From the sequence record PV018827: a DNA stretch of 64,000 bases. One strand, written 5' to 3'. How positions within the stretch are numbered: position 1 is the first letter of the stretch; the number at the start of each line of letters is the position of its first letter. The stretch comes from Escherichia phage KM01. The translations under genes and the position numbers were made by a program. The notes under the pieces are model-generated. The model was not told the DNA's origin and made no database searches. It worked only from the letters and a program-made list of their open reading frames with translations. This document shows, piece by piece, positions 47,538-48,153 of this stretch.

Positions 47538-47747
47538 TCAGTAGTAAATTACTTTAGACATAAAAGAACCAGTGTTAGGGTCTTCATACCAGCGATGTAT
47601 GTCAGCGCTTTTTACTATTGTGCCCAGAGTCTTCAACTGTTTCTTAGCAATACGAGCCTCTTTGCGAGTGTCAAACAATTTGATGCTATCTTTTCTCATG
47701 TGTTGCTCAAGATCCCAAACAACATGAATAGCCCACATCTTTTTCAT
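47538..47747 (-). CDS. Small protein, tandem paralog 1 of 3
   Basis: 69 aa; shares ...AR..KK...G.V.S..IH... and C-terminal (V/I)(I/H)YY with two neighbours. Confidence 0.4.
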   Translation of the reverse strand: MKKMWAIHVVWDLEQHMRKDSIKLFDTRKEARIAKKQLKTLGTIVKSADIHRWYEDPNTGSFMSKVIYY

Positions 47748-47956
47748 TAGTAATGCACCTTTCCACTGATATAAATACGACCAGAAGAATACTCCTTGGC
47801 CTTATGGATACTGATACTATTGACCACGTCACCAGTAAGCATAGTCTTTTTAAAATCTCGAGCTTGTTGGCGAGTGGGTAGTGCAGTCATAGTCATGCCA
47901 CCTGATGCCCACTTAATCTTTGCTAACCAAAATTGTCTCATAGTGATCGGTCTCAT
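47747..47956 (-). CDS. Small protein, tandem paralog 2 of 3
   Basis: 69 aa paralog; abuts neighbours. Confidence 0.4.
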   Translation of the reverse strand: MRPITMRQFWLAKIKWASGGMTMTALPTRQQARDFKKTMLTGDVVNSISIHKAKEYSSGRIYISGKVHY

Positions 47957-48153
47957 TAATAATAAACCTTACTGTTGGCAATAAAAGCACCTTCGCTATT
48001 CACAATAGCTCTTCCTAATGTAACCTTGTTAAGTCTAAAAGTAGACTTGTATTGATTTTTGACTCTACGTGCGTGCTCTCGAGTCTTAACAAAATCTACA
48101 GCTACTAACTCTCCAGTCGTGTTATCATGTACACGAACAATCCACTTTTTCAT
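47956..48153 (-). CDS. Small protein, tandem paralog 3 of 3
   Basis: 65 aa paralog ending KVYY. Confidence 0.4.
   Translation of the reverse strand: MKKWIVRVHDNTTGELVAVDFVKTREHARRVKNQYKSTFRLNKVTLGRAIVNSEGAFIANSKVYY

Follow-up and report, generated by a model that had tools for sequence, protein, structure and literature searches.

A mosaic array of three ancient small-gene paralogs behind dCTP deaminase in kuravirus genomes

Introduction

Why does a phage carry three small genes of similar design, end to end, directly behind an enzyme of nucleotide metabolism? The question is raised by positions 47,538–48,153 of the 64,000-nucleotide stretch of Escherichia phage KM01 DNA (PV018827) that was analysed here, referred to below as the window. 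The original prediction, made from the letters and their open reading frames (ORFs), described three tandem paralogs there, read the triplication as a sign of dosage need or diversification, and associated such arrangements with host takeover or anti-defence. The region is 96–98.7% identical to Escherichia phages ev_rybdy3, SkaterBoy_Bas90, FS2B, SU10 and their relatives, which are Kuravirus podophages (Gordonclarkvirinae) of the phiEco32/SU10 group, the type to which the phage studied here also belongs.

Kuraviruses are widely isolated as candidates for phage therapy of pathogenic E. coli, and annotation is lacking for most of their small genes. The three genes, here called copies A, B and C, have existing entries as hypothetical proteins and in a PHROG of unknown function. 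The literature consulted on phiEco32, SU10, YF01 and 7-11 does not discuss A/B/C-type genes or their paralogy, and no functional study of such genes was found in the literature searched. Here we describe the family in terms of its paralogy, predicted fold, extreme lineage restriction, multi-slot and multi-copy organisation and cassette-like exchange, which together are new. The main new result is the evolutionary pattern, a mosaic, cassette-like exchange of single copies.

Results

Three abutting genes in a conserved module

The ORF list confirmed three abutting small ORFs at 47538–48153, all on the minus strand: copy A (47956..48153; 65 aa, pI 10.3), copy B (47747..47956; 69 aa, pI 10.4) and copy C (47538..47747; 69 aa, pI 9.8). 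These are the orthologues of phiEco32 gp71, gp70 and gp69, with 95%, 86% and 97% identity, respectively. Copy B has an alternative start at an internal ATG (47941), which gives a protein of 64 aa and corresponds to the start position used by many homologues. The array lies directly downstream of dCTP deaminase (Dcd; 48154..48687, minus strand; Pfam DCD, E 3.7e-34; phrog_1663, E 6e-60), as had been claimed, and the stop codon of this upstream cistron abuts the start of A.

Read from right to left along the minus strand, the gene order is DNA primase/helicase, 3'-5' exonuclease, nucleotidyltransferase-like protein, dCTP deaminase, A, B and C, followed by a 109-aa protein, a Dps/ferritin-like DNA-binding protein, a 59-aa protein, thioredoxin and ThyX. 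The order around the array is identical in phiEco32 and SU10, and the annotated regions of phiEco32, SU10 and Bas90 confirm the synteny of the array, which in phiEco32 is flanked by dCTP deaminase (gp72) and gp68. The 109-aa gene (47136–47465, minus strand; phrog_10984) is 92–100% identical across genera, and its end is overlapped by the Dps-like gene (46580–47191, minus strand; Pfam Ferritin, 3e-07). The longest ORF of the latter has a TTG start at 47191, and annotated homologues start about 16 codons later; both the 109-aa and the Dps-like proteins are present in the SU10 proteome.

Two genes upstream of the array, the nucleotidyltransferase-like gene (48697–50067, minus strand; phrog_12715) gives a weak PolyA_pol head-domain match. 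Its product is only 29–32% identical between genera, where the adjoining dCTP deaminase is 92–95% identical. A homologue on the metagenomic contig L020 (3539–4759) shows a faint Pfam Gad2 (Gabija anti-defence 2) match, and the protein of the window has none at E ≤ 1. On the other side of the module, ev_rybdy3 (L002, 1833–2207) and several relatives contain ~376 extra bases relative to the window between the 59-aa gene and thioredoxin; this insert encodes two more small ORFs (58 and 61 aa) and marks another indel hot spot for small genes in the module. Neither tRNA genes nor Rfam families at the gathering threshold were found in the whole window (1–64000).

Paralogy and signature motif

Pairwise BLASTP detected similarity among the three proteins that was weak but, taken as single comparisons, significant (A/B, E 1e-4; B/C, 3e-5; A/C, 0.039), at 23–28% identity in these alignments; overall, the copies are 22–28% identical. 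All three matched one profile, phrog_4939, end to end (A, 2–67 of 67, E 7.8e-27; B, 1–67 of 67, E 9.2e-28; C, 1–67 of 67, E 1.7e-28), so that their paralogy is far beyond chance and the claim of tandem paralogs stands. The profile is annotated as of unknown function, and its members include phiEco32 gp69, gp70 and gp71 and SU10 gp069–071. A, B and C are thus true, ancient paralogs of a small, very basic, phage-only family.

Alignment of 32 diverse members revealed three invariant residues, W5, R28 and R32 in copy-C numbering, and at least 90% of these members also keep M1, T27, A31, K35 and the C-terminal Tyr. Little or no variation is seen in the motif T-R-x-x-A-R-x-x-K or in the C-terminal V-x-Y. 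Of the shared pattern described originally, AR..KK and the terminal V-x-Y are therefore real family signatures, but G.V.S.I is found in B and C only.

A family HMM run on all ORFs of the 64-kb window detected no fourth copy. SU10 gp072, a 68-aa ORF beside the array, was considered as a fourth paralog and rejected, being unrelated, acidic, Cys-rich and without an HMM match. A 47-aa 'truncated' copy B in YF01 (L024, OQ025076, 285–428) proved to be a late start-codon annotation; the underlying DNA, which shares 99% identity with the window, is uninterrupted.

Junctions and expression signals

The junction between Dcd and A is TAA|ATG (GTG TAA ATG), with the start codon of A immediately after the stop codon of Dcd, and the A/B and B/C junctions are both TAATG, in which the stop codon overlaps the next ATG (the upstream ATG in the case of B). 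The sequence AAGG(T) occurs in the final codons of each preceding gene, and within the array it forms the K-V codons of the conserved K-V-x-Y end. This classic stop-start layout suggests that A, B and C are translationally coupled with dCTP deaminase, and the three proteins should consequently share one mRNA with it.

The 72-bp gap from copy C to the 109-aa gene contains AAATGTATA (47505..47513, minus strand), found by pattern search and reading of the sequence, which matches 8 of the 9 positions of tAATGTAtA, the single-element promoter consensus of the phiEco32 gp36 sigma factor (PMC8948821). One of the six mapped gp36-dependent promoters is located upstream of phiEco32 gene 68 (PMC8948821), and such a P68-type promoter after C would make the array the tail of a transcription unit that ends just before it. 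A sigma-70-like match, TTTACT-16-TATGAT (47548..47521), overlaps the same gap, and exact TAATGTATA occurs at five other sites of the window (8946, 25522, 36244, 36316 and 42968).

By gene position, the array belongs to the early/middle gene cluster and not to the late one. The secondary sources disagree on the temporal class: SU10 CDS 69–125, a stretch that includes this locus, were classed as early (PMC4281155), versus middle for YF01 gp23–81, which also include it (PMC9965538). A/B/C-type proteins are absent from SU10 proteome detections and virion preparations, an uninformative result, as basic proteins of 7 kDa yield few tryptic peptides.

Predicted fold and charge

Structure prediction, one of the checks proposed for this locus, gave confident models for the two copies modelled. 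AlphaFold2 models built from family alignments (copy C, pLDDT 87.5 and pTM 0.71; copy A, pLDDT 84.1 and pTM 0.68) share one beta-beta-alpha-beta-beta topology, comprising b1, b2, a helix, a long b3 and short C-terminal strands ending in K-V-x-Y. In both models the predicted helix has 13–14 residues and begins at the T-R motif. When superposed on the C model, the BFVD models of A-, B- and C-type homologues give TM 0.64–0.87, and the BFVD matches consist of family members and uncharacterised proteins of 7-11-like, Cronobacter and Aeromonas phages, nothing else.

Comparison with known families and structures yielded no convincing match. Against solved structures, the best E was 0.15 with Foldseek on the PDB and 0.82 in a PDB profile search, and known nucleic-acid-binding folds (RRM, OB, Alba, Sso7d, HU and the RNase H1 hybrid-binding domain) gave no convincing match at the fold level. 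Pfam matches (best E 0.05–0.2) were far below gathering scores, with no family common to more than 2 of 32 members; PADLOC gave a single stray match (E 0.009) in 1 of 32 members, and NCBIfam stray matches only, none at the curated cut-off.

The pI was 9.7–11.1 in all 104 family members collected. The net charge at pH 7 is +7.7 for A, +7.7 for B and +5.8 for C, and each protein has 7–8 aromatic residues in 64–69 aa. Variation within each orthologous group clusters in two segments, the b1–b2 loop and the helix end with the following loop; judging from the connectivity of the models, both would lie at the same pole as the C-terminus. The conserved Arg/Lys residues could have a structural role, for example in pairing with the C-terminal carboxylate, rather than one in ligand binding.

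Distribution and copy number

A word-indexed search through 5.8 billion proteins gave 83 clusters. All of these are 64–87 aa long, they fall into three orthologous groups, and many lie on contigs of ~76–79 kb. When an HMMER profile was run exhaustively against 1.84 billion representative proteins, no more than 23 clusters, all of 65–79 aa, reached E ≤ 1e-3. Every contig examined that carries family members is phiEco32-like, and on the contigs of the most distant members the synteny is the same (Dcd, 2–4 small paralogs, the 109-aa gene, the Dps-like gene, thioredoxin and ThyX). In a tblastn search of 50,697 phage records 94 matched, all from Escherichia/Shigella kuraviruses and relatives, and tblastn with distant members found nothing beyond Escherichia and Shigella kuraviruses. 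One distant copy (local E 1e-5) occurs in Salmonella phage 7-11 (Grimontviridae), elsewhere in the genome, as an unannotated 73-aa ORF (L013, NC_015938 40948–41166, minus strand; MSKVQWEVHF...TRAEARAHKK...), in agreement with the BFVD matches to 7-11-like, Cronobacter and Aeromonas phages. It is the sole copy in 7-11, overlaps the 3' end of annotated gp055 and is not beside dCTP deaminase.

The family HMM, run on retrieved loci, detected 1–4 copies per genome or contig. These copies occupy two or three slots of the module for replication and nucleotide metabolism. The window, phiEco32, SU10, Bas90 and IMEP8 have an array of three (A, B and C) and no further copies, and SU7 has an array of two (B-like and C-like), again with no further copies. 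4E8 and Paul combine an array of three with one further copy between thioredoxin and ThyX. NC-B and ECBP2 have an array of two and one further copy; EK010, L021 and L022, as well as L020, have an array of two and two further copies; and the array of L010 contains at least four. Average-linkage clustering at 45% identity separated ~22 subtypes.

At least one B-like and one C-like copy were present in every Gordonclarkvirinae locus examined, always adjacent, whereas copy A was absent from Suseptimavirus phages and NC-B and, among the loci sampled, was found in Kuravirus only. The B/C split is older than the Kuravirus–Suseptimavirus divergence. Copy B is the most widely conserved subtype and appears in the published Kuravirus-like core proteome, where it is listed in YF01's 47-aa form (PMC9965538 Table S4).

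Two slots of the module differ in content between phages. The slot directly after dCTP deaminase (the 48153/48154 junction) is empty in the window and plastic elsewhere, with an unrelated acidic, Cys-rich 68-aa ORF in SU10, Paul, IMEP8 and 4E8 and a different 63-aa ORF in ECBP2 (examples at L003 3650–3856 and L019 2598–2789). The thioredoxin–ThyX junction is just 15 bp in the window (46040–46054); elsewhere, this slot contains one or two divergent family members of types D and E, and in SU7 it contains an HNH endonuclease instead (examples at L006 4565–4789, L018 4853–5297 and L021 7759–8210).

Allele exchange and selection

Comparison of eleven phages with the window revealed 92–100% identity for Dcd and 92–100% for the 109-aa gene, whereas the ranges were 29–95% for A, 48–98% for B and 42–99% for C; the paralogs thus drop to 29–60% against flanks that remain at 92–100%. 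The copy that is conserved differs from phage to phage. 4E8 has C at 94% next to A at 51% and B at 53%, and SU10 has C at 97% with A at 69% and B at 86%; in Paul, B is 98% identical, C 74% and A 86%, and in IMEP8 B is 95% and C 54% identical. The alleles of A, B and C thus assort independently, giving a mosaic pattern in which the copies are shuffled much faster than the neighbouring enzymes.

The synonymous divergence (dS) of swapped paralogs exceeded that of the flanking genes in the same genome pair: 0.61 for A versus 0.14 for Dcd in SU10, 0.66 for C versus 0.03 for the 109-aa gene in Paul, and 0.64 for C versus 0.11 in IMEP8. Beyond faster substitution, this indicates that individual A, B and C cassettes were probably replaced by recombination with older alleles.

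The dN/dS was 0.1–0.7 for the paralogs, 0.01–0.07 for Dcd and 0–0.12 for the 109-aa gene, and pooled pairwise values were 0.43–0.48 in the two variable segments versus 0.26–0.29 elsewhere. No positive selection was detected, and dN/dS never exceeded 1; the pooled pairwise Nei–Gojobori comparison is a crude measure that site-specific selection could escape. On these sequence estimates, constraint on the variable segments appears relaxed and overall selection purifying.

The triplication is old, since the copies are only 22–28% identical and represent separate orthologous lineages, each conserved throughout Kuravirus. Copies so divergent make dosage no sensible reading of the array, and this half of the original prediction is rejected. 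The other half, diversification, is supported by the low identity, the separate orthologous lineages, the ~22 subtypes, the variation from 1 to 4 copies and the independent exchange of alleles.

Discussion

A host-dependent binding role

What can be claimed at present is modest: the array is a real, ancient and fast-evolving set of paralogs of unknown function. The explanation that we favour, tentatively and at somewhat less than an even chance, is that A, B and C are independently acting, non-enzymatic small binding proteins under host-dependent selection. It builds on what the analysis shows: the genes are paralogs with a common predicted fold, high positive charge, shared synteny, signals for coupling, a mosaic evolutionary pattern and a narrow distribution. 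That the proteins act by binding, what kind of ligand they bind, that the copies act independently and that the host matters are points that we infer. On this account, the three 7–8 kDa proteins would be binders on one conserved scaffold, which ends in the V-x-Y strand and in which an antiparallel sheet of four to five strands packs against one helix bearing the invariant T-R-x-x-A-R-x-x-K, and binding specificity may reside in the two variable segments (the b1–b2 loop, and the helix end with the following loop). They would be made before the late phase from a polycistronic mRNA shared with the nucleotidyltransferase-like protein and dCTP deaminase, with stop-start coupling. The uniformly high positive charge suggests a polyanionic ligand, which may be a host protein of acidic character or a nucleic acid. 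Copies and alleles turn over between close phages, and this suggests that the target of each copy differs between host strains, which would point to a role in host interaction or counter-defence and not in core replication.

Several observations weigh against host-dependent binding. A/B/C-type proteins were not detected in the SU10 proteome, although few tryptic peptides are to be expected from proteins so small and basic; even the variable segments have a dN/dS below 1; and the retention of B-like and C-like copies, with B in the core proteome, looks like that of needed genes and not of dispensable accessories. Known small anti-defence proteins that mimic DNA are acidic, whereas this family is basic.

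A more specific form of the host-dependent account, which we consider rather improbable, is that the family provides a phage-lineage-specific scaffold for modular binders, whose cassettes are exchanged to match the defence or target repertoire of E. coli strains. The b-b-a-b-b core would then present the two variable segments in a multi-copy counter-defence or host-takeover family, and its basic members may bind the nucleic-acid component of a defence system instead of acting by DNA mimicry. The host-takeover or anti-defence function proposed originally is likewise speculation: fast, mosaic evolution and the turnover of alleles and copies fit it as indirect signs, but no family in PADLOC, Pfam or NCBIfam matched, dN/dS is below 1, and the proteins are strongly basic, unlike acidic DNA-mimic inhibitors.

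Alternative explanations

The main and serious rival to a host-dependent binder is a housekeeping one, possible but on balance doubtful, in which the proteins are nucleic-acid-binding factors of the replication and nucleotide-metabolism module that coat or chaperone phage DNA or RNA, much as small basic chromatin proteins and ssDNA- or RNA-binding proteins do, with partly redundant copies. The pI of 9.7–11.1 in 104 of 104 members, the 7–8 aromatic residues in 64–69 aa and the conserved basic motif on the predicted helix are as expected of such factors, and the position between Dcd and the 109-aa/Dps-like genes is fixed even in distant metagenomic relatives. Every Gordonclarkvirinae locus examined keeps two or more copies, B is listed as core and selection is purifying overall, all of which also favours a housekeeping role; the lack of a match to a nucleic-acid-binding fold and the turnover of alleles speak against it.

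Assembly of A, B and C into one hetero-oligomer, with exposed sheet faces pairing and the array as one functional unit, is quite unlikely. Tight stop-start coupling favours similar stoichiometry, B-like and C-like copies are always adjacent, and the helix of the predicted topology would cover one face of the sheet only; however, co-adapted interfaces are made less likely by the independent assortment of A, B and C alleles among phages, Suseptimavirus phages and NC-B lack copy A, and 7-11 has a single copy.

Regulation or inhibition of nucleotide or uracil metabolism, whether by p56-like binding of Ung or by modulation of Dcd or ThyX, is very improbable. The array directly follows Dcd, to which it would be translationally coupled, and the p56–Ung complex of phage VMY22 was among the top Foldseek matches in the PDB, but this match was non-significant (E 0.3), and p56 and Ugi are acidic DNA mimics in contrast to the strongly basic A/B/C family. 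Further copies occupy slots away from Dcd, the 7-11 copy is not beside it, and a conserved enzyme partner would not explain the turnover of alleles.

That the ORFs are not genes and their similarity is a by-product of repeated DNA is effectively refuted by the conservation data, since nothing but their small size and the lack of detection in the SU10 proteome speaks for it, whereas they are intact in ~94 phage genomes and in metagenomic contigs, dN/dS is well below 1, fold predictions are confident and the copies are alike only at the protein level (22–28% identity).

Significance

With this analysis, three 'hypothetical proteins' become a defined family that has a predicted fold, a signature motif and a clear evolutionary pattern. 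A small, fast-evolving ORFan family in a plastic phage locus is a known kind of object, and the result is useful but not surprising to a specialist. Its conserved scaffold and variable segments, together with the exchange of cassettes and the differing copy number, make the family a good candidate for host-range or counter-defence functions; if such a role were true, the allele content of the locus could help explain host-range differences between near-identical phages. If phage nucleic acid were bound instead, the family would represent a new small DNA- or RNA-binding fold.

Comparison with known systems

The proteins of phrog_4939 (phiEco32 gp69–71 and SU10 gp069–071) are the same family as A, B and C, with no difference. 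Among characterised proteins, the internal-protein (IP) cassettes of T-even phages, such as T4 IPI, IPII and IPIII, are tandem small basic proteins encoded in a hyperplastic locus, whose alleles and copy number differ between close relatives. The A/B/C array resembles them in exactly these respects: tandem small basic proteins, with variation in alleles and copy number between close relatives. T4 IPs are late, capsid-targeted and injected, and their common part is a short N-terminal targeting peptide, not a fold. In contrast, A, B and C share a whole predicted folded domain and lie in an early/middle leftward cluster upstream of the gene-68 promoter, and unlike the capsid-targeted T4 IPs, proteins of their type were not found in SU10 virion preparations.

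p56 of Bacillus phages (phi29/VMY22), an inhibitor of uracil-DNA glycosylase, is likewise small, with a beta-sheet and one helix, and shares a dUTP/dTTP-metabolism neighbourhood. Foldseek comparison with the VMY22 p56–Ung complex gave a probability of 0.80–0.85 and TM 0.43–0.53 over 47 columns at a non-significant E of 0.3, and the PDB profile search revealed no sequence similarity to p56. Whereas p56 and Ugi have acidic, DNA-mimicking surfaces, the A/B/C family has a pI of 9.7–11.1 and charges of +5.8 to +7.7. T4 Dmd antitoxin and AcrIIC3, as small phage inhibitor proteins, are also among the closest known systems. Basic chromatin proteins of the Sso7d/Sac7d type are ~7 kDa, have a pI of about 10 and are the products of several paralogous genes; being alike in size, pI and paralogous copies, they provide the functional analogy for a nucleic-acid-binding role of A, B and C.
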